Assembly (NCBI GenBank): GCA_947374865.1
Contig: CANCDR010000010.1
Location: 20,319-84,318, forward strand
Reading direction: 5' to 3'
From: Oxalobacteraceae bacterium
GTDB lineage: Bacteria > Pseudomonadota > Gammaproteobacteria > Burkholderiales > Burkholderiaceae_D
Length of the DNA stretch: 64,000 nucleotides
The position numbers were made by a program, and so were the translations under genes. Each line of letters opens with the position of its first letter. The first letter of the stretch is position 1. Below the pieces are notes generated by a model that was not told where the DNA came from, searched no databases, and was given only the letters and a program-made list of their open reading frames with translations. This document shows, in pieces, positions 1,024-17,114 of the stretch.

Positions 1024-1237
1024 ATCATTGATACAAACGTCCCTGCTGTTCACGATCTTGCAGAGATCCTGAACGGCAGCGGGACGATTGCAGCCAATGC
1101 GAAGTCTGGCTGCTGAAATGTCAGCAGGCGCCACTGCCTGACGCGCATCGATTAAGTCGCGGCAAGGTGCGATCGCATTGGATTTCTTTAAAACAGATAT
1201 CATTGCAATTCACCTTTGCTTTTTTAAGCGACTCTGC

Positions 1238-3289
1238 ATGAAAAAAAATATCGCCCGTTTCATTCTTTTTGTCGCCCTCCATGCGCTGGCTTTATCGACC
1301 TGGGCAGCGGCTTCCAGTTCACCTGCGACGCCATTACCAGACCGTTTCCTAAACCTGCTAGAGGCCCAGGGAGTGTCCGGCCATGAAGACGAGGTGCGTG
1401 CGGCAGTACTTTCGCAGCTGCCGGACTGGGTCACACCGCAGATCGACCAGCTGGGCAATCTGATCATCACGCTCGGCAAAGGGGAGCCGCACGTTGCCAT
1501 CGTCGCAGCGCTGGATGAAAACGGCTACCTCATTTCGGGCATTACACCGGAAGGCTATCTGCGCCTACACCGCCATACCGCGCGCAATTCACATCCACTG
1601 CGCGAACAATTTTTCGTCGGCCAGCCGGTGCAAATTCGCAGCGCCAGCGGCAAATTGATTCCTGGTGTAACGACCACTCCCTCCACCCACCTGAGCCGTC
1701 TGCTGCCGGCAAACGAAACCAGTCGGGTACGAGACATGAGCGATTTATGGGTCGATGTCGGCGCGCCTGACCAGGCCACCGTTAGCCAGCTGGGACTGCG
1801 CATGCTGGATTCGGTCAATCTGCGTAATCGTGCCACGCGACTAGCCAATGACAAGGTCGCTGGCGTCGATAGCCAGCTGCGTGCCGGCGCGCAGACACTG
1901 ATTGAAATAGTGCGCGGTTATGCCTTGGCACCCCAAGTCAATGGCACGCTGACGCTGGCATGGGTGACACAGTCGCAGTTCGGCGATCATGGTCTTAACC
2001 GACTGGCGACCTCGGCCCGGCCGCAGCGCGCTTACCTGATCGGCGGTTCAGCAGGCGGTCTGCAATCCCCTCCCAAAGGCTGGGAAAATACCCGTATCGA
2101 ACTCAAGTCGGTGCCCTCACTGTTTGCGGAAACGCCGGTCGAAGTCATTGATACGCGACACATCACCGCATTGGCCAGCGAACTACAAAGCGCGGTCGGA
2201 CTGCCCACCCCTACGGTCTTACTGAGCGCCTTCAAGCAAAGTTCGAGCGCATCCCTCGCCGTCCATCCCGTCGCACCAGTTGGCTCGTTTGCCATCCTCA
2301 AGACCATGATTGAAGCATATGGCGTCTCCGAACACGAAGGCCCGGTTCGTGAAGCCATCCTCAAGGCTCTACCAGCCTGGGCCAAACCCGTGACCGACGA
2401 ACAGGGCAATCTGAGCGTAAGCTTCGGTAGCGGCGGCAAGGAACTGCTGTTCGTCGCCCATATGGACGAGGTGGGCTTCGATATCACTGGATTACGTGAA
2501 GATGGCAGCGCCCGGGTGCGGGTGCGCGGGGGGGTGTATCTGTCCCTCTACGAAGCACAGCCGGTACTGGTGCATACCGAACGTGGCATCGTGCGCGCCA
2601 TCATGACACCGCGTCCACGCTACAGTGCCGCCACCCGTTCGCAGCCCGAGATCGAAACGCTGAGCGTCTATTTTGGCACGGCATCCGCTGCCGAGACCCG
2701 TGCTCTGGGCGTGAATCCTGGCCAATCAATCACGGTACCCAAGGCCTTCGTCGAACTGGCCGCACCGCGCGCGACCGGTCGTTCCATGGACGACCGGGCT
2801 GGCGTAACTGCGCAGCTCATGGCACTGGCGACGCTGGATCCGACTAAAGTCAAAAATCAGGTGACATTTGCCTTCAGCGTGGGCGAAGAGATCGGCTTGG
2901 TCGGCGCGCGGGCACTGGCCAAACGTCTGCAGCCTGAGGTCGCCTTTGCGATCGATACGTTTGTCTCAACCGACACACCGACCGACCCGCATTATCTGGC
3001 CCATGCACCGCTCGGTGCAGGCGCCGTATTACGCGGCGTTGACAGCATGACGGTCGTACCCGCGCAAACCATGGATCGCATCACCAAACTAGCGCGCGAA
3101 AACAAGATTGCACTGCAAATCGGCGTGACCCAAGGCGGCACCGATGCCAGTGAATTCAGCAGCCGCGGTGCAATTGACGTCGGACTTTCCTGGCCAGGAC
3201 GCTACTCCCATTCCCCCGTCGAAGTGATCGACCGGCGCGACCTGGAGTCACTGGCACGTCTAATCAGCGTGCTGGCGCAGCAGTATTGA
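1238..3289 (+). CDS. Secreted tandem M42 (TET/FrvX-type) aminopeptidase fusion: degenerate N-terminal copy plus intact C-terminal copy
   Basis: ORF 1178..3289. The ATG at 1238 gives the signal peptide MKKNIARFILFVALHALALSTWA. The second half has M42 ligand motifs AHMDEVGF, SMDDRAG, VGEEIGLVGA, AFAIDTF, RYSHSPVE. The first half aligns to it but reads AALDENGY, ANDKVAG, TQSQFGDHG, AYLIGGS, LFAETPVE. Confidence 0.8.
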   Translation: MKKNIARFILFVALHALALSTWAAASSSPATPLPDRFLNLLEAQGVSGHEDEVRAAVLSQLPDWVTPQIDQLGNLIITLGKGEPHVAIVAALDENGYLISGITPEGYLRLHRHTARNSHPLREQFFVGQPVQIRSASGKLIPGVTTTPSTHLSRLLPANETSRVRDMSDLWVDVGAPDQATVSQLGLRMLDSVNLRNRATRLANDKVAGVDSQLRAGAQTLIEIVRGYALAPQVNGTLTLAWVTQSQFGDHGLNRLATSARPQRAYLIGGSAGGLQSPPKGWENTRIELKSVPSLFAETPVEVIDTRHITALASELQSAVGLPTPTVLLSAFKQSSSASLAVHPVAPVGSFAILKTMIEAYGVSEHEGPVREAILKALPAWAKPVTDEQGNLSVSFGSGGKELLFVAHMDEVGFDITGLREDGSARVRVRGGVYLSLYEAQPVLVHTERGIVRAIMTPRPRYSAATRSQPEIETLSVYFGTASAAETRALGVNPGQSITVPKAFVELAAPRATGRSMDDRAGVTAQLMALATLDPTKVKNQVTFAFSVGEEIGLVGARALAKRLQPEVAFAIDTFVSTDTPTDPHYLAHAPLGAGAVLRGVDSMTVVPAQTMDRITKLARENKIALQIGVTQGGTDASEFSSRGAIDVGLSWPGRYSHSPVEVIDRRDLESLARLISVLAQQY

Positions 3290-5035: not shown

Positions 5036-5070
5036 AGCTTGTGGGGTCAAGTCTTGACATGACAGTTTTT
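5036..5070 (+). repeat. Copy 1 of the 28-nt element (variant GGGGTCAAGTCTTGACATGACAGTTTTT) with shared left flank AGCTTGT
   Basis: Direct reading. It matches 5151..5186 except for one A/G difference. Confidence 0.9.
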
Positions 5071-5150: not shown

Positions 5151-5186
5151 AGCTTGTGGGGTCAGGTCTTGACATGACAGTTTTTT
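5151..5186 (+). repeat. Copy 2 of the 28-nt element GGGGTCAGGTCTTGACATGACAGTTTTT
   Basis: Direct reading. It lies 54 nt upstream of the 5240 start codon. Confidence 0.9.
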
Positions 5187-6393: not shown

Positions 6394-6422
6394 AAAAAAC
6401 TGTCATGTCAAGACCTGACCCC
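6394..6422 (-). repeat. Copy 3 of the 28-nt element, inverted orientation
   Basis: The + strand reads AAAAAACTGTCATGTCAAGACCTGACCCC. It overlaps the stop codon of the glycosyltransferase ORF. Confidence 0.9.
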
Positions 6423-7294: not shown

Positions 7295-8551
7295 ATGAAC
7301 AATAGACTCAAGCAAATAATTTCACCAAAGCAGCTGGTCGCGGGCCTACTGGTGTTTTTGCTGCCATTTCTCAGCCTCGTGACCCTGTGGGGCGTGAGTG
7401 GCGTCAGCTTCGGCATTGCGGCTGTCGCTGCGCTGATCATCATCACCGGCCAGGGACGCAGCGTGATGGCACCACATTGGCGCGCCGTGCGTCCGGTGTG
7501 CTTGGCTTTCCTGCTTCATTTTCTATTCACTCTGGCTTGTCTGATTCTGCGTAGCGAGGCAATCCTGTCCGCGCTCGAAAGGCCGGCGCGCATGTTGTTG
7601 GCAATATCTGCGCTGATGCTGGTTTTGTGGGCACGTCCCGATCGTCGATTTCTTTGGTGGGGCGTTGCCGGCGGTGCCTTGGCGGGTGCTTTTCTGGTCG
7701 GTTATCAGAGGCTCGGTCTGGACATGGATCGTCCCGGTGGTTTGATGAATGCGATCACCTTTGGCGATATGTCGCTCTGTCTGGGTTTGATTTCGATCGC
7801 CGCCATGATCGACCAGCGCAGCGCGCGACAAATGATATGGCCCATCATCGGTCTGATCGCCGGTCTGGCCGGATCGGTCATGACAGGCACGCGGGGTGGC
7901 TGGCCTGCGTTGGCGTTGGCGGCTGTGATCATGGTTCGCTATAGTCATGCGCTCAATAGTCGGCGTGTGCGTGCCTGGGTAATCGTGAGTTTTGTCTTGG
8001 TCGGCGCTACCTATTTCATCCCTGGCAGCGGCGTGAGCGAGCGCGTCGACGAAGGTATCGCCGGGATCAGCAGTTATTTTAATGGTGGAAGTGTCTTCAC
8101 CATCATGGGTATCCGGCTCGAGCTCTGGAAGAGCGCCAGCATGCTGATCGCCGAACATCCCCTGCTGGGTATCGACTACCAGGCCGCTGCTGTGCGTATG
8201 ACCGAATGGGTCGCTGCAGGTCGTCTGGATCCCGTGGTACTGACCATGCCGCACTTACACAATGAATACTTACAGAAATGGGTGACGGGCGGTGCCGTCG
8301 GTTTGGTGATCTGGCTAGCGACCCTGATCACCCCAATAATTTTTTTCGCCCGCCAGCTCGCTCCAGGTGCTCAAGCAAACAAAACCGTCATCGCCTGCGC
8401 CCTCGCCGGCCAATTCGTCGTCACGAGCTATCTGTGCTTTGGCCTCACCGAAGTCATCTTCTGGTCAGTCAAAGCCAGCCTCTTCTATGCACTCATGGTC
8501 TTCCTACTCATGGGCCTCTGCCTCAACGAAACCCCTGGGGTCAGGTCTTGA
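7295..8551 (+). CDS. O-antigen ligase (Wzy_C) family membrane protein
   Basis: 418 aa and polytopic (about 10 or more hydrophobic segments). It has a Wzy_C-like central loop region (..GTRGGWPALALAAV..) and is divergent from the GT2 gene. The last four codons plus the stop lie inside repeat copy 4. Confidence 0.75.
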   Translation: MNNRLKQIISPKQLVAGLLVFLLPFLSLVTLWGVSGVSFGIAAVAALIIITGQGRSVMAPHWRAVRPVCLAFLLHFLFTLACLILRSEAILSALERPARMLLAISALMLVLWARPDRRFLWWGVAGGALAGAFLVGYQRLGLDMDRPGGLMNAITFGDMSLCLGLISIAAMIDQRSARQMIWPIIGLIAGLAGSVMTGTRGGWPALALAAVIMVRYSHALNSRRVRAWVIVSFVLVGATYFIPGSGVSERVDEGIAGISSYFNGGSVFTIMGIRLELWKSASMLIAEHPLLGIDYQAAAVRMTEWVAAGRLDPVVLTMPHLHNEYLQKWVTGGAVGLVIWLATLITPIIFFARQLAPGAQANKTVIACALAGQFVVTSYLCFGLTEVIFWSVKASLFYALMVFLLMGLCLNETPGVRS

Positions 8552-8564
8552 CATGACAGTTTTT
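8537..8564 (+). repeat. Copy 4 of the 28-nt element
   Basis: Direct reading: GGGGTCAGGTCTTGACATGACAGTTTTT. Confidence 0.9.
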
Positions 8565-8672
8565 CACAATCGATTAGCCGCATCTGCAACGCCACACACG
8601 CCCGGCGAATTAAATAGTACCAACGCATTCAATCCGCACTAATCGCACATCAGCCAATTCACCAGCAGGCTA

Positions 8673-8700
8673 AAAAACAAAAAAGCCTACAAGCTTGTGA
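8673..8700 (+). repeat. Left copy of a 28-bp direct repeat AAAAACAAAAAAGCCTACAAGCTTGTGA
   Basis: 27/28 identical to 16392..16419 in the same orientation. Sequence beyond CTTGTGA diverges. Confidence 0.9.
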
Positions 8701-8737
8701 TCTATACGCCTTTTTTCTCTATCGAATGCCCGTTTGA

Positions 8738-11710
8738 TTAGCCGTGCAAGCTGATCAGTCCACCCGGCGACACTGATGTCGCTACAGTAAACGAATAAAT
8801 ACCAATCAATTCAACGACAGAGTCATTCATCGAGATTGCCGAAGAACTAATATCATGCGCACTGACGATATACGTATTTCCTTGGAATACGAAAGCTTCC
8901 AAACTGCCATTATTTGAGGCGCTAGCAGCCCCAGTCGCCGCTGAAGCCATATTTGCCGCAGTCAACCATGTCGATAAAGACCTCGCATCCCCCGCAACAT
9001 TGGTAATTGTGTTGATTATCCCCATTCGCAGTAAATTATTATTTAATGTCATCGTCAGGGTATCTGAGGAAGTGGCCGTGTTGTTCAAGCCTGAAATAGT
9101 GCTGTAATGTATTCCATCAGTTATACCGACCGTCACCGCATCATGGGTAAAATTAGAGTGAGCGCCTAATTTAATTGTCAATGCATCACCCAATCCTGCG
9201 GCAATAATAGTTGCTGACCCACTACCAACTGTAATATTCCCAGACACGCCATTGCCGCTGGCTTTGATCGTTCCAAGTCCACCGTTACCCAGTGTGATAT
9301 CAATCGTGCCGACAGAGGATGTCATAACAGAATTATTGGCGCCATCACCTAAGTTCACTGTTTGGCTAGAACCAACAACGCCCGAACCTAAAATCACCGT
9401 ATCGTAAGCGCCATTCCCCATCGTGACTTTTACGACGTTTCCTGCTGCTGTGGCACCTGATAATGTCACGTAATTATGCGTTCCTGCATTGCCAGATACA
9501 TCCTTTGTCGTGATGCTGACATTGCCTACGGAGGCACCAGTTACATAGTCACCCAAGCCAGAACCTAATGCGACGACTTGAGTGGACCCAGCAACACCTG
9601 GTCCTAAAGTAACATAATCACCGATTCCATTTCCCATGGTTATGGTGTTCGTTGCTGTCGCTGAGGTTGCGCCAGCCAAGGTCGCATAATCGCCCGCACC
9701 ATTGCCAAATGTCAGCGTAACGTTGCCTGTAGATACAACCGTAGCATAATCGCCTACGCCAGCGCCCAAGGTGAAATTAATCGATCCGGCAGCAACAGCA
9801 GCACTGGTAATGTAATCACCCGCACCATTTCCCAGAATTACGGTTTGATTGCCAACATCTGAAGCACTAGACAAAACGACATAGTCCCCTGCATTCCCAC
9901 CCATTTTTACAGAATCGTTCGCAGCTGAAGCAAGCGTCACCGCTGTCCAAGCAGAAGCCACAGCATTGGCTGCATTAGTAGCCAAAATTCCCGCCGCAGT
10001 CACGGCATTCGTTGCAGCCAAGTCATCTGTCGTCACTGTTGTGAGCTTCGTTACCGCTATTAAGTTCGCCGCTGCCGTCACCGCTGATGCGGCTAAAGTC
10101 TGCGCGTCCAAGGCATTCTTCGATGCCAGTGTGGCAGCATCAACCGAGGCATTAGTCAAAGTAAGCGTGGTTGCAGAATCCGCTGCGGCGGTGGCCTTAG
10201 CAGCGTTTAACGTTGCCAAGGTTGCCGCCGTAACTGCACTATTCGCAGATGCGGTGTAAGTCGACAAGGCCAAATCCGCGTTCGCTTCACGCGACAATTC
10301 TAGGCTCACGACGGATAAATTGGTATTTGCTTTAGATAAGGCACTCTCAGCAGCAAGGACAACATTTTTAGCCTTCGTCACCATTACAGTCGCTGCATCG
10401 ACTGCGCTCGTCCCTGCGTCATCGTCGGTAAGAATCTTGGTAAGAACAGTCGCTGCTTTGTAAGTCGTGGCGGATGACATCACGCCTTTAGCCGCATCTT
10501 GGTAAGCATCGGCATTTGACTTTGCCAGCGTCGCCGCTGTGACGTATGCATTGGCATTCGCCAGTGATGTCGCAGCAAGATTTGCAGCAGATGTGGCCAA
10601 GTCACCATTCACGGTAGCCGCATCAGCAGCAGATGCAGCAAACAATTTAGCATTGTTAAAGCTGCCCAAGACTATCACCGCATTTTGTTCGTTGGCGACA
10701 TCTTTAGTCGCCTGTTGGGAATCTAGATTTGCTTGTAGCTTCCCTTGAACGCTGGCATTTTCTGCTGCAGCGACTACTTTTTGCTGACCCGCAGTAACGG
10801 CACTTGCCGCGACTGATTTTGACAATTTCGTCACCGCAATAGCGTTACTTGCCGCCACATCATCCGAGGTATCGCTAGTGGCATCCGTAGCAGCTTTCAA
10901 TTCGGCAGCAGCAGTCGATGCCAACGCAGCATAAGCAAAATAAGTTGCCGCTGTTGATGAAGCCAGATTTGCCGCAACAGTGGCCACTGCCGCCAAGGGA
11001 ACCGTGTTAGCAGCAAGTGCTGCATTATCAGCAGCAAGGGCAGCACTTGTAGCGGCGGTCGCATAAGTATTGACGTTTGCTGCAGCAATGCCGTAATTCT
11101 TCAAGGCAGATGTCGCGCTTATCGCCTTAAGAGCTTGCATGGCAGCGATTGCTTCGGCATTTGCTGTATCTGTCGCAGCGCGATAACCGGCATCAGCCGA
11201 ATAAGAAGCGGCAGCATTTGCAGCAGTGACGTCAGTCGATGTCACCAGTTTAAGAATGGCCGTAGCATCAGTTACGCTAGTGCCTTGTAATGTTGCGCCA
11301 AAATTTAAGGCAACCGCGACTTTATTCATAAACAGCGCTTGTGAGATATAGCCAGCTGCATCATTGCCAGCGTAATCCAAAACAGCAGCAATGAGTTTAA
11401 CGACAACGCCGCCAACACTGGCACCAGAGGCATTCAGTTCTGCAGTCCAATGCGCGAGTCCCTCAGCATCTGGCATGCGTCCCAGAACATTGGTATAGAA
11501 GTTAGTAACGATTTGTCCATTATTCAAATTCAATGGGTAAATCGTGCGTGCGGCTTCTGTTGTATACATTTGTTGTGCAATGGAGGAAAAGCTTGCCCCC
11601 TTGCCCATCAGGTCAACCCAGAAAGCCAAACCACTCGCTTCAGGGGCGCGTGCAAACAGGGATACGTAGAGTTGTGTTACTTGCGTCGTCATTGCGCTAT
11701 GCATAGCCAT
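8738..11710 (-). CDS. Large leaderless surface/secreted-type protein: N-terminal DUF4214-like module, Ala/Thr-rich central region, G-x-G-x-GDY repeat block, distinct C-terminal domain
   Basis: 990-aa ORF with no signal peptide and no Cys. N-terminal motifs are LYVSLFARAPEASGLAFWVDLM and FYTNVLGRMPDAEGLAHWTAEL. Repeats include GNAGDYVVL, GNGAGDYITS, GAGVGDYATV, GNGAGDYATL, GNGIGDYVTL, GSGLGDYVTG. Confidence 0.8.
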   Translation of the reverse strand: MAMHSAMTTQVTQLYVSLFARAPEASGLAFWVDLMGKGASFSSIAQQMYTTEAARTIYPLNLNNGQIVTNFYTNVLGRMPDAEGLAHWTAELNASGASVGGVVVKLIAAVLDYAGNDAAGYISQALFMNKVAVALNFGATLQGTSVTDATAILKLVTSTDVTAANAAASYSADAGYRAATDTANAEAIAAMQALKAISATSALKNYGIAAANVNTYATAATSAALAADNAALAANTVPLAAVATVAANLASSTAATYFAYAALASTAAAELKAATDATSDTSDDVAASNAIAVTKLSKSVAASAVTAGQQKVVAAAENASVQGKLQANLDSQQATKDVANEQNAVIVLGSFNNAKLFAASAADAATVNGDLATSAANLAATSLANANAYVTAATLAKSNADAYQDAAKGVMSSATTYKAATVLTKILTDDDAGTSAVDAATVMVTKAKNVVLAAESALSKANTNLSVVSLELSREANADLALSTYTASANSAVTAATLATLNAAKATAAADSATTLTLTNASVDAATLASKNALDAQTLAASAVTAAANLIAVTKLTTVTTDDLAATNAVTAAGILATNAANAVASAWTAVTLASAANDSVKMGGNAGDYVVLSSASDVGNQTVILGNGAGDYITSAAVAAGSINFTLGAGVGDYATVVSTGNVTLTFGNGAGDYATLAGATSATATNTITMGNGIGDYVTLGPGVAGSTQVVALGSGLGDYVTGASVGNVSITTKDVSGNAGTHNYVTLSGATAAGNVVKVTMGNGAYDTVILGSGVVGSSQTVNLGDGANNSVMTSSVGTIDITLGNGGLGTIKASGNGVSGNITVGSGSATIIAAGLGDALTIKLGAHSNFTHDAVTVGITDGIHYSTISGLNNTATSSDTLTMTLNNNLLRMGIINTITNVAGDARSLSTWLTAANMASAATGAASASNNGSLEAFVFQGNTYIVSAHDISSSAISMNDSVVELIGIYSFTVATSVSPGGLISLHG

Positions 11711-11835
11711 TAATAATCTCCATCAATTCAAAGTTGCGCCGCTATCGCAAGTGAGGTCATCATTGTTAGAATGTGCAATGTCAGCGTCGGTAAAGGTGTC
11801 GTCCCCAGTCAGGGGGGTGTATATGAGGGCTTATG

Positions 11836-11851
11836 AGCAGGAACTGTGCCA
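11836..11851 (-). promoter_or_regulatory. Candidate sigma-54 (-24/-12) promoter facing the 990-aa gene
   Basis: The - strand reads TGGCAC-AGTTC-CTGCT with GG-N10-GC spacing, about 125 nt upstream of the start codon at 11710. A sigma-54 activator gene lies 3 kb away. Confidence 0.55.
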
Positions 11852-11872
11852 TGCATTAAAAATGCATGGCAC
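11846..11872. repeat. Perfect 12-bp inverted repeat GTGCCATGCATT-AAA-AATGCATGGCAC overlapping the -24 element
   Basis: Direct reading. The two arms are exact reverse complements. Confidence 0.9.
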
Positions 11873-11966
11873 CCCCTATACTTTCAAAGAAAATTATAAA
11901 AGTGTGCGGGTATAGGTATTGCGGTTAAATGGGGTGACGACACCATAGTTAAGGTGAAAACTCCCG

Positions 11967-12443
11967 TCATGAAAGTAGCATTCCCCCTTGAGGGTGCATC
12001 TCCTTGCTATAACTCCTTGATGGGTCCCCCACTGGCAACTTGTCATATTGCCCCTCCAATACACGCTCTACCGCATCCATTAATATAAGTTGCGTGAAAG
12101 GTTTGATCAGGTAGGCGTCGCATTCAGCGGCCATCCCGCGTTCAACATCGTTACTGCGACTGAGTCCGGACATCAAAATGACGCGTGTTTGATGTTTTAA
12201 TATTGAATGCGTCTTGATGCGTTTGCAGACTTGATAACCATCCAAAAATCCTGGAAACATCACGTCTAGCAAGATGAGACAAGGTCGCAGATGTTGCACA
12301 ATACGCCAGGCATCGTCACCAGTATTCGCCTCATGCAGAATCCGCTTATTATCCTCAAGGCTTACCCTGAGAAGTCGGCGCATTTCAAACTGGTCATCGA
12401 CGATGAGAATATTCTGTATCATTGCCAAGCCTTTTTTATGCAT
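11967..12443 (-). CDS. Single-domain response regulator (CheY-like receiver)
   Basis: ILIVDDQFEMRRLL..., phospho-acceptor context LILLDVMFPG, and conserved Lys context AYLIKPF. The start may instead be the internal Met (MIQNILIVDD). Confidence 0.85.
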   Translation of the reverse strand: MHKKGLAMIQNILIVDDQFEMRRLLRVSLEDNKRILHEANTGDDAWRIVQHLRPCLILLDVMFPGFLDGYQVCKRIKTHSILKHQTRVILMSGLSRSNDVERGMAAECDAYLIKPFTQLILMDAVERVLEGQYDKLPVGDPSRSYSKEMHPQGGMLLS

Positions 12444-12541
12444 TATGTATTGGAGCGGCGGGGTCCGCGCTTTGCGACCGCGCAGGCATGGAATGGATCA
12501 ACGCGTTGGGTTGGGTCACGCGTTTTGTCTAACATCTAGTT

Positions 12542-12557
12542 AGCAAAAATCGCGCCA
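12542..12557 (-). promoter_or_regulatory. Candidate sigma-54 (-24/-12) promoter facing the CheY-like gene at 11967..12443
   Basis: The - strand reads TGGCGC-GATTT-TTGCT with GG-N10-GC spacing, about 100 nt upstream of the ORF start. Confidence 0.5.
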
Positions 12558-12696
12558 GCGTTTAAAGACGATGGATTACTTCGCTCGCTTGGCTTTGTTT
12601 GTGAAGAGGGTGACGGCGCACAGAAGAATAATTCCTCAATGGCGTAGTGGACTTAGGGCGTGACTGCTGACACTTTCGACTTTTTAAGCGAACAAA

Positions 12697-13110
12697 CTAG
12701 GGAGTCGTCGCCACAGTTGATGCATATCCTCCTCGCATTAATACCGCGCGAATGGATTTGATGATTTCATCATGACGAAATGGCTTAGCAACAAATGCTG
12801 AAATATGCCCCATTTTCAAACGTTGTTTAATAATGGCATCGTCTGCATAAAAAAATCCTGATACTAAAATAGCTGGCGCTAAGCATGTCGTCTCGTTACG
12901 AATCCGTATGATGAGTTCAAGGCCTTCAATGTCATTGAGCTTGGCATCGACCAACATGAGCTGGCAGCTGTGTTCGTGTAGCCATTGCATCGCCTCTTGA
13001 CCGCTAGCAGCTAGGGCAACGACAAAGCCATTTTTAAGTAGAATCATCTCCAGCACCCAACGCACATCGGGTTCGTCATCAACAACGAGTACAGTGATGC
13101 CCTCAGTCAT
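12697..13110 (-). CDS. Single-domain response regulator (CheY-like receiver)
   Basis: VLVVDDEPDVRWVL, LMLVDAKLNDIEG, AFVAKPF. The start overlaps the kinase stop by 4 nt. Confidence 0.85.
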   Translation of the reverse strand: MTEGITVLVVDDEPDVRWVLEMILLKNGFVVALAASGQEAMQWLHEHSCQLMLVDAKLNDIEGLELIIRIRNETTCLAPAILVSGFFYADDAIIKQRLKMGHISAFVAKPFRHDEIIKSIRAVLMRGGYASTVATTP

Positions 13111-14624
13111 GTGACTTGCGCTAATAAGGGTAGGCGTACAACAAATAAACTGCCCACGCCTACCTCACTGAATTCCACATTGATCGTTCCCTTGAGTTGC
13201 GCCACAATGGTGTGCGAAATGGATAAGCCGAGTCCTGTCCCCTGCCCTACAGGTCGAGTGGTAAAAAAGGGGTCGAATAACTTCGCCATAAGAGCAGGCG
13301 CAATGCCGCAGCCAGCATCACGCACGGAAAATACCGCCTCGTCATGCTCTTTCAGCATAGATACGATCACATCGCCACCGGTCGGCATTGACTGAGCGGC
13401 GTTTAAAATCAGATTCATCATCACCTGCCTTAGTAGACTTTCATTCCCCAACACAAATACAGGTGGATCTTCGTAGACTTCCAAAAAATTTATCTTGGTG
13501 AGCTTTGCTTGTGGCGTCAGAAAACTGACCGTATCTCGCGCCAAGTTGACAAGGTTGACTGATTCAATTTGATCGATAGTGGAAGGACGCGCAAAACGCA
13601 GCAAATTTTCAATAATCACAGAAGAGCGTTCAATGCCATCCACTATTTTCTTTACGCATGCCTGTTGAAACACGGCATCAATTTCTGGCTCGAGTAAAAA
13701 CTGCGCAGCCGAATAACTGACTGCCAGCGGATTACGCAACTCATGCGCTATCCCGCCGGCCATGACGCCAAGCGCAGCTAGTTTTTCTGACTGTCGTAGA
13801 TGCTCCTCTAGAGCACGGCTTTCAGACAAATCCTTACCCACAGCGACGAATCCATTGACCATACCAAAGTCGTCACGGATCGACGAAAACAACCATTTCA
13901 CCGGTATTCGCAATCCTGAACGGGTAACAAGATTAAGCTCCAAAAATGTTACCGTACCGCTTGTGACCAGTTCTCGAATCTGGCTCGACTCAGACTGCGT
14001 TGTCTCCCAAAAATCGCTTGACATACGACCTTGTACATCCTTTAAGCTATAACCAGAAATTCGTTCCGCATTAGCATTCCAACTGGTAATCATGCCATTA
14101 AAATCCGTTACGATAACTAGGTCGTTGCCACTTTCAATGACGCCCTCTAAATAACGTAAGTCCATTCTGGCTTTTGCACTGACCCTCAATTTTTCGGTAA
14201 CATCATCTAGTACAAGCATGACATTTTCAATGCTGTCTCCTGATTTTACCGGTATTAAGGTATACAAATAAATCCGGAGGGGCATCTTTGGCTGGCGATA
14301 AGTCATCAACGCACTGGGGATCACTACACCCTTGTCAAATAGTTTCGTAATGGCTGTTTCTAGCTGCGAAATTTCTAAGCCATCATCAGGCATGAGATCG
14401 CGCAAGCGCATGCCAACAGCACACCCTTCAGGACGACCAAAATTTTGATCAGCATGCCATTTTTCCGATATGACGCAAAGTGAGGGGTCGATAAGAATGA
14501 GTGAAAAAGGTAGGTTTTGCAAAAGCAGGTTGTACATTTTTTCATGCCATCCCGCCTCATGCAATACTGATGGCGGAATGTTCGCTACACTATTCGCCAA
14601 GCTACTAAGTTCGGGATTATTCAA
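13107..14624 (-). CDS. Cytoplasmic PAS-domain sensor histidine kinase
   Basis: 505 aa with no obvious TM segments. PAS-like regions are followed by the H-box GIAHELRNPL and HATPase_c motifs (N-box LILNAAQS, G-boxes RDAGCGI and GTGLGLSI). Confidence 0.85.
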   Translation of the reverse strand: MNNPELSSLANSVANIPPSVLHEAGWHEKMYNLLLQNLPFSLILIDPSLCVISEKWHADQNFGRPEGCAVGMRLRDLMPDDGLEISQLETAITKLFDKGVVIPSALMTYRQPKMPLRIYLYTLIPVKSGDSIENVMLVLDDVTEKLRVSAKARMDLRYLEGVIESGNDLVIVTDFNGMITSWNANAERISGYSLKDVQGRMSSDFWETTQSESSQIRELVTSGTVTFLELNLVTRSGLRIPVKWLFSSIRDDFGMVNGFVAVGKDLSESRALEEHLRQSEKLAALGVMAGGIAHELRNPLAVSYSAAQFLLEPEIDAVFQQACVKKIVDGIERSSVIIENLLRFARPSTIDQIESVNLVNLARDTVSFLTPQAKLTKINFLEVYEDPPVFVLGNESLLRQVMMNLILNAAQSMPTGGDVIVSMLKEHDEAVFSVRDAGCGIAPALMAKLFDPFFTTRPVGQGTGLGLSISHTIVAQLKGTINVEFSEVGVGSLFVVRLPLLAQVT

Positions 14625-14723
14625 GGGGAAATCCTTGTTGGACGTAGGTTTTAAAATAGGGGCAGCGTCTTGCTCGGATCACATCCCGACATTGCGCGTT
14701 TGCAGTACATTTAAATCGGCTCA

Positions 14724-16292
14724 TTACAAGGATGTGTCTTGCATGACCTGTAGCGTTGAAATCGAATGATCTTTGAGTTTTTTTAGCAAAGTCTTGTAAT
14801 CAATGTGCAGCATTCGCGCCGCCTTCGCTTTATTGCAGCGCGTCTGGCGCAGCACTTGAATGATGATTGCCCGCTCCATTTGCGCGTTCACCAACGTAGT
14901 CAATTCTTTTAATGGCAAATCGCTGCCGTGTTCAAGCAGCTCGGCAGCAGAGGAAAACAATGTTTTTACATTACCAAGGGCCTCATTAAACCAAGACTGT
15001 TCATCGGAGGATGTTTCAGCCGCTACCAGCGCAGCTTCAAGCCCGCCAATCATTCCCAAATGTTTGGGTGAAATAATGCCATCGTCGTCATCGCACATTA
15101 AAACGGCGCGGCGTAATTGATTTCGTAATTCCCGCGCATTGCCAGGCCAGCTATAGTGATGAATCAGATTCCATGCCGCCTGATTAAGCCCTTGTATCTG
15201 CTTGCCCAGTTCTTGATTGGTCATGCTGAGAAAGCGGGTGACAAGATAATTAAGATCATCGCTTCGCGACTGTAAAGAAGGAATAAATATCGTATATTCC
15301 GCAATCCGATGATAAAGGTCACCTCGGAAAGTCTGCATTTTCACCATCGCCAATAGATCAGCATTGGTGGCCGCCACCACGCGGAAATCAACTTCTAAGG
15401 TCTTACTGCTGCCAATACGATGAATGCGTCGCGTCTCCAGTACACGCAGTAATTTCCCTTGTGCTGATAAGGGTAAATTGCCGATTTCATCGAGAAAAAT
15501 CGTGCCGCCGGCTGCCAGCTCAAACGCGCCAGCTTTGGCTTGATGCGCACCCGTGAATGCCCCTTTTTCGTGGCCGAATAGTTCGCTTTCAATCAGGGTA
15601 TCGGGAATCGAGCCACAATCAAGCGCTACAAACGGTTGATTGCACCGAAGGCTGAGTGCATGAATCGCTTGGGAGACCAGTTCTTTACCTGTTCCTGATT
15701 CGCCAGTCACCATGACGGAAAAATTCGTTTTTGCCACGCGCTCTACGTCGGCTTGAATTTCCATTACCGCCGAACTGCTGCCCATTTGATCGACGAGTAA
15801 TCCGGGGGAAAATGCCGGCTGAAGAACTTGTAGAACATGACGTCTTGCATCAATCCCGATCAACGCATTGCGAAGCGTAAGGACGATATCCTGATTACTA
15901 AAGGGTTTGACCACGTAGTCAAAGGCGCCAGCATGGATTGCGCGCACCGCATCCATGGTGTTGCCATTTCCCGTGATCATAATGACAGGAATCGATCTAT
16001 CAATTGCCTTGAGTCGTTTGAGTACTTCAAAACCATCGATATCGGGTAAGCCAACATCGAGAAGTACAAGATCGGGCGGGGAATCTCGAATGATTTTGAG
16101 CGCCGCTTCCCCATCAGCGGCTTCAATGACGCGCATGCCGTTTTTAGTGACAATGTTAGATAAAATCCAGCGAACATCCTCTAGATCATCAACGATTAAA
16201 ATGCTGGATGCGACGGAGGCGATTTTGATTGATATCCTATTGATGAAGTTGCCATAAAGGAAATTAAATACCCTGCTGAAAAATAGTACCAT
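14724..16292 (-). CDS. Sigma-54-dependent response regulator (NtrC family enhancer-binding protein)
   Basis: Receiver ([25 protein letters not shown]), AAA+ sigma-54 interaction domain ([23 protein letters not shown]) and a C-terminal Fis-type HTH ([20 protein letters not shown]). The N-terminal 25 residues are uncertain. Confidence 0.9.
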
Positions 16293-16391
16293 TTAACTAT
16301 TGATTAGGATTTTATCGTTGGTATCAAATGCTTAGTCAAAATTTTATTATCCATTGGTACAGTGTGCATGGATTTAATTGACAGCTTCTCC

Positions 16392-16419
16392 AAAAACAAA
16401 AAAGCCTACAACCTTGTGA
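16392..16419 (+). repeat. Right copy of the 28-bp direct repeat AAAAACAAAAAAGCCTACAACCTTGTGA
   Basis: 27/28 identical to 8673..8700. It forms part of the tRNA-Pro terminator. Confidence 0.9.
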
Positions 16420-16428
16420 GTTGTAAGC
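16392..16428 (-). terminator. Intrinsic terminator of tRNA-Pro
   Basis: The - strand reads GCTTACAAC-TCACAAG-GTTGTAGGC followed by TTTTTTGTTTTT, immediately 3' of the tRNA. Confidence 0.75.
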
Positions 16429-16440
16429 TTTTGAATTAAT

Positions 16441-16517
16441 TGGTCGGGGCGAGAAGATTCGAACTTCCGACCCCATGCACCCCATGCATGTACGCTACCA
16501 GGCTGCGCTACGCCCCG
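16441..16517 (-). tRNA. tRNA-Pro (anticodon GGG)
   Basis: 77 nt. Acceptor CGGGGCG/CGCCCCG, discriminator A plus CCA, anticodon arm CATGC-ATGGGGT-GCATG, T-loop GTTCGAATC. Confidence 0.9.
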
Positions 16518-16606: not shown

Positions 16607-16975
16607 TTAACGCGTATTAGCATCAATATCGGCCAGCGACTCGCGACCACGCTGAGTAATGTCGAAGCCCTCGCCATTTTCGCGTACGGTGATATGACCT
16701 TTTTTGCCGAGAAAGGTGACCACGCCGTTGGAAAGCGCCACCACAGACTGCGTCGACACCGCCCGTAAGCCATCGATGCAGTGCTTGAGAAACAGGTTCT
16801 GCTCGCCCTTTTCAGTCAGACTCACATGCCCGTCCTTGGCAAAACTGATAAATTTAATGCCCGACAGACGTTTGGTGTTACGCGCAATGCAGGCCGAAGG
16901 ACGATCGCCGCGCTTGAGCTTGATGATCTGCTCGAGCGCCTCGTATTCATCCTTACTGAGTGATTCGTCTTTCAT
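16607..16975 (-). CDS. Hypothetical protein (about 122 aa)
   Basis: ORF 16607..17029. The internal Met at 16975 ([11 protein letters not shown]...) is preferred. There are two similar segments (..[15 protein letters not shown].. and ..[24 protein letters not shown]..). I do not recognise a family. Confidence 0.5.
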
Positions 16976-17114
16976 TCCTTGATTCCCTGATTCGTCGCCA
17001 TGAAGCCCGCATGGTACGCCCTCTGCCATGGCGGGGCAAATTTGCTTTTGGCTCCGGTCAACAAACCGGTATCATTTGGCTTTGTAAATCTATAACCATT
17101 AACGCCCGCCGGCC

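Follow-up and report, generated by a model that had tools for sequence, protein, structure and literature searches.

A 7.7-kb segment of five genes directly downstream of tRNA-Pro(GGG) in an Oxalobacteraceae bacterium is compositionally foreign, and its composition switches sharply at two direct repeats that correspond to half of the terminator of that tRNA gene. We analyzed the segment within a 64,000-nucleotide stretch of contig CANCDR010000010.1 (the window). On balance, we regard it as probable that the segment is a horizontally acquired islet that entered by a single reciprocal crossover inside the tRNA-Pro(GGG) terminator, in the manner of a cis-mobilizable element (CIME), and that it is now fixed. 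The organism is a freshwater member of its family, known from metagenome-assembled genomes (MAGs) and metagenome contigs alone. All five genes lie on the minus strand and have the domain content given for them in the original prediction, which had been made without database searches: an NtrC-type sigma-54 activator, a PAS histidine kinase, a CheY-like response regulator of 137 amino acids (aa), a second single-domain response regulator of 158 aa, and a 990-aa DUF4214 protein (P990) (Table 1).

The segment between the repeats is compositionally foreign

The G+C content between the repeats is 47.8%, compared with 55.4% in the rest of the window, a far stronger AT bias than the spot counts behind the original prediction had indicated. 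That prediction had also proposed a sliding-window and k-mer check. The lowest-GC 7.7-kb window of the 64 kb starts at position 8751 and lies about 7 standard deviations under the other windows, and the tetranucleotide distance of the segment (0.31 to 0.35) is about double that found elsewhere (0.12 to 0.23). At third codon positions, the G+C fraction (GC3) of the five islet genes is 0.43 to 0.50, versus 0.639 ± 0.045 (minimum, 0.512) in the 39 other genes of the window, such that all five rank below all 39. The change is stepwise at both repeats, with GC3 falling from 0.666 in wzy to 0.429 in the P990 gene at the left repeat and rising from 0.484 in the activator gene to 0.626 in the flanking 122-aa gene (P122) at the right repeat. 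A third-position shift common to five unrelated genes cannot be explained by amino acid composition. Among 5.8 billion proteins, the closest relative of the activator reached no more than 66% identity, compared with 98, 84, 78, 76, and 75% for relatives of P122.

The P122 gene (positions 16607 to 17029) encodes 122 or 140 aa, according to which start codon is used, is transcribed toward tRNA-Pro, and has no Pfam or NCBIfam match. Its 307 relatives are spread across the Oxalobacteraceae; the annotation of a few of them reads putative transcriptional regulator, and some members carry PF14338 or PF14947.

The direct repeats match part of the tRNA-Pro(GGG) terminator

The two copies of the 28-mer AAAAACAAAAAAGCCTACAA(G/C)CTTGTGA, at 8673 to 8700 and 16392 to 16419 on the plus strand, have the same orientation and are identical at 27 of 28 positions, as first reported. 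They are the only matches with three or fewer mismatches in the window (0 in 100 dinucleotide shuffles), and about 1 Mb of further fetched loci yielded no other copies except those of conspecifics. The tRNA gene is immediately preceded by a TATAAT box and is followed by a hairpin (16400 to 16432; −16.3 kcal/mol, z = −4.3) and then by UUUUUUGUUUUU. Because the terminator hairpin maps to these positions, the right copy of the repeat is made up of U-tract, 3′ arm, and loop, in agreement with the original description of it; read on the minus strand, it comprises the loop (UCACAAG), the 3′ arm, and the U-tract. The repeat lies wholly within the terminator, beginning 8 to 21 nt past the CCA end, and no base of the tRNA is duplicated. 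Apart from the tRNA, an Rfam scan returned no match. Terminators homologous to this hairpin, with compensatory changes, stand after tRNA-Pro(GGG) in three further loci (L013, L052, and L061), and judging from them the terminator is ancestral to tRNA-Pro(GGG).

The left copy begins 25 nt past the P990 stop codon if the extended copy described below is counted, or 37 nt past it if only the 28-nt core is, and is the sole terminator-like element for this gene. Together with its own upstream bases it forms an interrupted hairpin of −10.1 kcal/mol followed by U's. The claim that it cannot form a hairpin was therefore too strong, and yet the fold is no better than that of shuffled sequences (z = −1.3). 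Weaker similarity between the copies continues for 13 bases past the core (8/13; binomial p of 0.006 to 0.05 against chance), giving 41 nt at 85% identity, and beyond this extended repeat identity is at background (7/30 past the extension and 10/30 ahead of the repeat). The contrast between core (27/28) and extension (8/13) is significant (Fisher p = 0.008). The loop is identical in both copies (7/7), whereas the functionally needed 5′ arm matches at only 8 of 13 positions. The original prediction had held that two independent terminators would not look like this, and a recombination junction does fit the loop and arm counts better (Fisher p = 0.008).

Three other readings of the repeat were considered and rejected. 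A decayed tRNA fragment ahead of the distal copy was not supported, since alignments did not rise above shuffles (p of 0.14 to 0.19). The left copy showed no convincing plus-strand fold and is not a bidirectional terminator serving the convergent O-antigen-ligase gene as well. Upon reading of its sequence, the 28-mer had no dif-like arms, and a dif/Xer site was dismissed.

Two MEGAHIT contigs from different samples both start exactly at 16403, within the right repeat just past the A-tract. In one of these samples the islet-bearing contig ends at 16532, giving a 130-nt overlap (the contigs concerned are L005, L006, and L009, of which L005 is a 99.4% strain variant). The shared start may reflect a strain-level branch of the assembly graph at the junction or a mere homopolymer effect.

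Table 1. Positions of the islet features in the window and of the comparable features on contig L048
Feature	Position	Strand	Remarks
Left (distal) terminator copy	8673..8713	−	28-nt core 8673-8700 plus degenerate 13-nt extension (8/13)
990-aa DUF4214 protein (P990)	8738..11710	−	Last islet gene
Sigma-54-type −24/−12 element TGGCACAGTTCCTGC	11837..11851	−	About 125 nt upstream of P990 start codon
Perfect palindrome, 12-bp arms, GTGCCATGCATT-TTT-AATGCATGGCAC	11846..11872	Strandless	Overlaps −24 element of P990 gene promoter
Single-domain response regulator, 158 aa	11967..12443	−	
Sigma-54-type −24/−12 element TGGCGCGATTTTTGC	12543..12557	−	About 100 nt upstream of 158-aa regulator gene
CheY-like response regulator, 137 aa	12697..13110	−	Single domain; GvrC position
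PAS histidine kinase, 505 aa	13107..14624	−	Cytoplasmic; GvrB position
NtrC-type sigma-54 activator, 522 aa	14724..16292	−	GvrA position; receiver, AAA+ with GAFTGA loop, HTH_8
Sigma-70-like promoter match TGCACA-16-TAAAAT	16341..16368	−	Between right repeat and activator gene; consensus match alone
Right (tRNA-proximal) terminator copy	16392..16432	−	Core 16392-16419; complete hairpin 16400-16432, then U-tract
tRNA-Pro(GGG)	16441-16517	−	ARAGORN and Rfam
L048: tRNA-Thr(TGT)	1149-1224		
L048: strong terminator of tRNA-Thr	1236-1274		
L048: membrane kinase, GerE-type regulator, 1181-aa DUF4214/RTX protein	Between terminator copies		Low-GC genes
L048: second terminator copy	7974-8012		36/39 identical
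L048: TonB receptor gene	Past second terminator copy		

A second tRNA locus carries the same arrangement

The closest homologue of the P990 N terminus (P0001) is encoded on a contig from the same metagenomes (L048, ENA ERZ27263703 k141_557811; also L049 and L050). Here, too, a tRNA and its terminator are followed by genes for two-component regulators, a large DUF4214 protein as the last gene, and a second copy of the terminator (Table 1). The DUF4214 N termini of the two proteins are 63 to 65% identical. GC3 in the L048 cassette is 0.33 to 0.45, versus 0.59 to 0.72 in its flanks, and as in the tRNA-Pro islet there is no integrase. A tRNA remnant ahead of the distal L048 copy was not detectable (p = 0.92). 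The two cases differ in the tRNA and in the terminator sequence. In L048 the whole hairpin is duplicated, and both copies are strong hairpins; its regulators are a membrane kinase and a GerE/LuxR-type protein without a sigma-54 activator; and its DUF4214 protein has RTX repeats, unlike P990, which has no PF00353 match. No terminal inverted repeats or arm sequences are common to the two cassettes. Among nine tRNA loci examined, a distal terminator copy was present only in these two, and a third DUF4214 context (L051) had neither a tRNA nor such a repeat.

The islet carries gas-vesicle-type regulators with putative new targets

The activator matched the set of receiver, AAA+ (Sigma54_activat), and HTH_8 domains in Pfam with E values of 1e-65, 1.6e-31, and 9e-09, and the GAFTGA motif is seen in its translation. 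The activator, the kinase, and the 137-aa CheY-like protein are 65, 57, and 61% identical, respectively, to proteins of a gas-vesicle cluster (L060, 10001 to 17593). All three of the best-match contexts of the activator that we opened (P0143/L060, P0144, and P0139/L063) are gas-vesicle clusters of the gvrA-gvpH-gvpZ type, in which the order is activator, HSP20-like GvpH, CDC48-like GvpZ, GvpF/L, PAS kinase, CheY, and GvpA. In Serratia sp. ATCC 39006, gvpA1 is expressed from a sigma-54 site, and its expression requires each of GvrA, GvrB, and GvrC (PMC4982088). The islet has the same kinds of protein in the same order as the Serratia system, namely an NtrC-type sigma-54 activator, a PAS kinase, and a CheY-like protein; the identities given above refer to gvp-cluster copies in other MAGs and not to the Serratia proteins. 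Unlike the gvp clusters, the islet has no gvpH, gvpZ, or gvpF between the activator and the kinase. A tblastn search of the 64-kb window with 13 L060 proteins (12 from the gvp cluster and one from a small upstream open reading frame [ORF]) found no gvp genes, and only the three regulators matched. By their sequences, the three islet genes are of the GvrA/B/C type of gas-vesicle regulators, without gas-vesicle genes in the window.

The gvp clusters and the islet also resemble each other in having a sigma-54 promoter directly past the CheY gene. The CheY gene and gvpA of L060 are separated by a stretch with a perfect sigma-54 element, TGGCACAGCTATTGCA, which takes the same position as the element ahead of the 158-aa regulator gene in the islet. 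Since no other L060 protein has a match and since a sigma-54 element stands at the gvpA-equivalent position, the trio appears to have left its gas-vesicle setting and acquired other targets: the predicted islet promoters stand ahead of genes for a response regulator and a DUF4214 protein, where gvp clusters have gvpA. With a promoter of its own, a sensor, an activator, and two activator-dependent targets, the cassette looks self-contained.

The kinase gene and the gene after it share 4 nt at stop and start, and the 158-aa regulator is annotated as 151 aa in public MAG annotations. The palindrome at the P990 promoter sets a second, inverted TGGCAC 16 nt upstream and might act as an operator or as a divergent −24 box. 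PADLOC and PHROGs gave matches in the islet just to generic receiver, kinase, and AAA+ domains, and a defense system or a phage-derived element was rejected on these grounds.

P990 resembles type-I-secreted surface-layer proteins

P990 lacks a signal peptide. It consists of an N-terminal DUF4214 module (PF13946, E = 3.7e-14, residues 45 to 95), an Ala/Thr-rich middle, and a C-terminal part with Gly-rich "GNGAGDY" repeats. The DNA of its gene contains no tandem repeat. Its relatives match the N-terminal ~170 aa only, at 47 to 65% identity in 16 of 17 matches; PF00353 RTX repeats were present in 10 of these 17 homologues, one of which is named an S-layer protein by its source. For the C-terminal half, a search of 1.84 billion representatives returned only weak Gly-repeat relatives. 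A conserved N-terminal anchor with a variable remainder is typical of type-I-secreted S-layer/RTX proteins such as RsaA of Caulobacter and SapA of Campylobacter fetus. P990 is like these proteins in lacking a signal peptide, in its conserved N-terminal module, and in its Gly-rich, repetitive C-terminal half, and we count its position next to O-antigen genes as a further likeness. It is unlike them in that it has no PF00353 match itself, no type I secretion genes near the islet in the annotated neighborhood, and no sequence match to a solved structure. Our best guess is that P990 is a type-I-secreted protein of the surface-layer type, with export and surface location deduced from these features.

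The islet in relation to known element classes

The islet contains no integrase, excisionase, or transposase gene, as had been noted at the outset: its five ORFs have other domains, and the intergenic gaps do not exceed 256 nt. Pfam annotation of positions 1 to 27.7 kb of the window likewise revealed no mobility genes next to it. The 20-mer of the repeat had no match in IMG/VR, and when the islet was compared with 72,556 plasmids by blastn, the matches were limited to generic sigma-54 AAA+ sequences.

In a survey of Klebsiella, most islands at tRNA genes (tDNAs) carry an integrase, most of their direct repeats include part of the tDNA, and the repeat length has its mode at 20 to 25 bp; surveys also record islands without an integrase that nonetheless have direct repeats and low G+C (10.1101/2020.11.02.365908). 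The islet resembles classical tRNA-linked islands in its location directly downstream of a tRNA, its direct repeats of typical length, its lower G+C, and its accessory cargo. It differs in having no integrase, in repeats confined to the terminator and excluding the 3′ part of the tRNA, and in being present in all conspecific assemblies that span the site, instead of variably so.

CIMEs are decayed integrative and conjugative or integrative and mobilizable elements (ICEs or IMEs) that keep attL and attR and have lost their integration and transfer genes (PMC5704250). The islet is like them in carrying att-like direct repeats at both ends and no recombination or transfer genes inside; by this comparison it would be mobile only with the help of another element. 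Unlike CIMEs, it has no content resembling remnants of an ICE, and no related functional ICE or IME at the site was found in the IMG/VR and plasmid searches.

Integrative mobile elements exploiting Xer (IMEX elements) and pdif modules are recombinase-less and flanked by 28-bp Xer sites. The islet has 28-bp direct repeats and no recombinase of its own, as do these elements, which depend on an enzyme of the host. Its 28-mer, in contrast, has no XerD arm of the TTATGTTAAAT type, and it sits at a tRNA terminator and not at the replication terminus.

Distribution of the islet

To look for an empty site, we examined genomic context in twelve look-ups and scanned 185,579 species genomes once. A block of PnuC, NadR-like, and TonB-receptor genes is kept in 35 Oxalobacteraceae genomes, with none of the five islet genes nearby. 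In L013, P122 and tRNA-Pro(GGG) are followed by a homologous terminator (with compensatory stem changes and the same loop) and then by TRAP-transporter genes and further ordinary genes, and the neighborhood is rearranged. Relatives with P122 at 72 to 78% identity have no tRNA-Pro at the site and other genes there, none of them being any of the five islet genes. The cluster look-up gave almost no organism names for homologues. A scan of JGI metagenomes anchored on the tRNA end and the terminator arm retrieved a single, unrelated locus (L061).

L061 (JGI Ga0187843_10000009, 11265 to 12600) comes from another organism. There, a 376-aa tyrosine-recombinase-like ORF stands immediately ahead of a displaced 3′ half of tRNA-Pro(GGG), which has a similar terminator with a AAGCTTACAA stem. 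An arrangement of this kind suggests a canonical integrase element that uses the same tRNA. In a further set of single-population contigs with P122 at 75 to 78% identity (L053 to L056 and L064 to L069), the sequences diverge a few hundred bases past P122, and many end there; the region downstream of P122 seems strain-variable across the group, even without a tRNA.

Several results weigh against entry by a crossover in the terminator. Neither the look-ups nor the genome scan found an empty site. The original prediction had expected one in related genomes, and the nearest relatives are either rearranged or represented by contigs that stop. No recombinase lies in or adjoins the islet. The islet is present in every conspecific assembly spanning the site, and the two repeats in these assemblies match those of the window exactly, down to the G/C difference. 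A strain from another project (L062), about 95 to 97% identical, has the same right junction, and its divergence from the window is equal in islet and flank (96.8% and 96.7% identity, respectively). Because of this shared junction and equal divergence, the islet must predate the split from L062 and be fixed in the species; on these sequence comparisons, the insertion is not recent. In the closest other species (L052, P122 at 84%), the tRNA and terminator are present, and the contig ends 52 nt later. This 52-nt tail is weakly similar to the right end of the islet (empirical p about 0.006) and, to a slightly lesser degree, to the left flank (p about 0.06); its similarities to these two and to L061 are all weak and conflict with one another. 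Were L052 to have the islet, conservation or conversion would be needed to account for repeats that still agree at 27 of 28 positions. Finally, the 8/13 extension suggests that the whole terminator was once duplicated, beyond the 28 bp.

The proposal of an attL/attR-type island is supported in part: by the foreign composition, by the distance of the activator from its nearest relatives, by the lack of the five genes in relatives with a conserved PnuC/P122 neighborhood, by the identity pattern of the repeats, and by the second case in L048. With neither an empty site nor a linked recombinase found, and with the segment fixed in the conspecific assemblies that span the site, the repeats are putative att sites.

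A single crossover in the terminator is the favored explanation

The repeats, the composition break, the gene content, the promoter motifs, and the homologies are direct observations. The crossover and the direction in which the DNA moved are inferred, as are the phosphorelay and the route of export, for which we rely on homology and motifs. In the proposed mechanism, incoming and probably circular DNA with a terminator-like stretch would cross with the chromosomal terminator, after which the common 28 bp (loop, 3′ arm, and U-tract) would stand at both ends. The tRNA would keep a complete terminator, and the last islet gene would receive the other copy. Either a recombinase supplied in trans, as is the case for CIMEs (PMC5704250), or general recombination (RecA) on 28 to 40 bp of homology could have carried out the crossover. 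Within the islet, the sigma-70-type promoter would drive the GvrA-like activator, the cytoplasmic PAS kinase, and the CheY-like protein; the phosphorylated activator would then switch on the two sigma-54 promoters, from which the second CheY-like protein and the 990-aa DUF4214 protein would be expressed. The latter would probably be exported by a type I system and reside at the cell surface. A single crossover accounts for direct repeats with sharp edges and for the composition steps at them, for the perfect terminator of the tRNA as opposed to the foreign, poorly matching 5′ arm of the distal copy, and for the recurrence of the pattern at a second tRNA.

Two alternatives accept that the segment is foreign, and we consider both improbable. 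One is that it represents a decayed classical tRNA island, which had its own tyrosine integrase and an att site spanning the 3′ half of tRNA-Pro and the terminator, and from which the integrase and the tRNA fragment were later deleted. The integrase element at tRNA-Pro(GGG) in L061 shows such a design in another organism, and integrases and tDNA-containing repeats were usual in the Klebsiella survey (10.1101/2020.11.02.365908). Nevertheless, there is no room here for remnants, with only 99 nt separating the right repeat from the start codon of the activator gene and 37 nt separating the left core from the stop codon of the P990 gene; comparison of the sequence ahead of the distal copy, in the window and in L048, gave no significant tRNA-like remnant; and the same clean, integrase-less layout at two unrelated loci would need the same precise pair of deletions twice. 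A decayed island is less likely than a crossover because neither room for nor trace of the lost parts exists and because the same clean result was reached twice.

With a similarly low probability, the cassette may have come by another route, such as illegitimate or homology-facilitated recombination, with the terminator copied later, by local duplication or conversion, for the use of the 990-aa gene. The left copy does stand exactly where this gene needs a terminator, 25 nt past its stop codon, and both L048 copies are strong hairpins. Selection for termination, though, should leave the opposite of what is found: the loop is conserved and the arm is not, which contradicts copying under selection, and the left fold is no better than shuffles. 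Copying 28 to 40 nt across 7 kb without prior homology also has no obvious mechanism and would be needed twice.

Vertical descent of five ancestral genes, with a composition that is odd for some other cause and a repeat that arose by local duplication, is very unlikely: although the segment is in every conspecific assembly spanning the site, diverges between strains as much as its flank, and may share its right end with L052 (by weak similarity), this reading is contradicted by GC3 values that lie below those of every other window gene and step at the repeats and by the lack of any orthologue above 66% among 5.8 billion proteins, with the best matches in gas-vesicle clusters of other bacteria, and the five genes are absent from the PnuC/P122 neighborhood of the 35 Oxalobacteraceae genomes.

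A dispersed repeat in the neighboring lipopolysaccharide region

To the left of the islet, a dispersed repeat of about 30 nt, GGGGTCAGGTCTTGACATGACAGTTTTT, occurs at 5050 to 5070, 5165 to 5185, 6395 to 6415 (minus strand), and 8544 to 8564, that is, four copies within 3.5 kb of the glycosyltransferase/O-antigen-ligase region, versus 0.01 expected. Its internal TGA serves as the stop codon of the O-antigen-ligase gene (8549 to 8551) and of the GT2 gene (6408 to 6410). An in-frame TAG eight codons past the ligase stop (8576 to 8578) may be an older stop of this gene. The repeat might represent a small element of the lipopolysaccharide region that is mobile or takes part in recombination.

Implications

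Islets of this kind are already known, and a duplication that excludes the tRNA is only slightly unusual. Our additions are modest: a repeat that lies wholly in the terminator, a second example, and re-wired gas-vesicle regulators. The two independent cases, at tRNA-Pro in the window and at tRNA-Thr in L048, raise a wider and rather speculative idea, which we hold to be doubtful at present: a family of small, recombinase-less islets in freshwater Burkholderiales might use the intrinsic terminators of tRNAs as attachment sites and carry two-component regulators and a DUF4214 S-layer-type protein as cargo. Each element would bring a look-alike of its target and be integrated by a host or trans-acting recombinase or by RecA on 28 to 40 bp. 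With such a design, integration would leave the tRNA with a working terminator and give the last gene of the element the other copy. Should the pattern hold more widely, terminators would themselves count as attachment sites, and island finders that seek tRNA-derived repeats and integrases would miss such islets. A trio of the GvrA/B/C type that is wired by putative sigma-54 promoters to a surface-layer-type protein would be a clear case of the re-use of a regulatory module after horizontal transfer.

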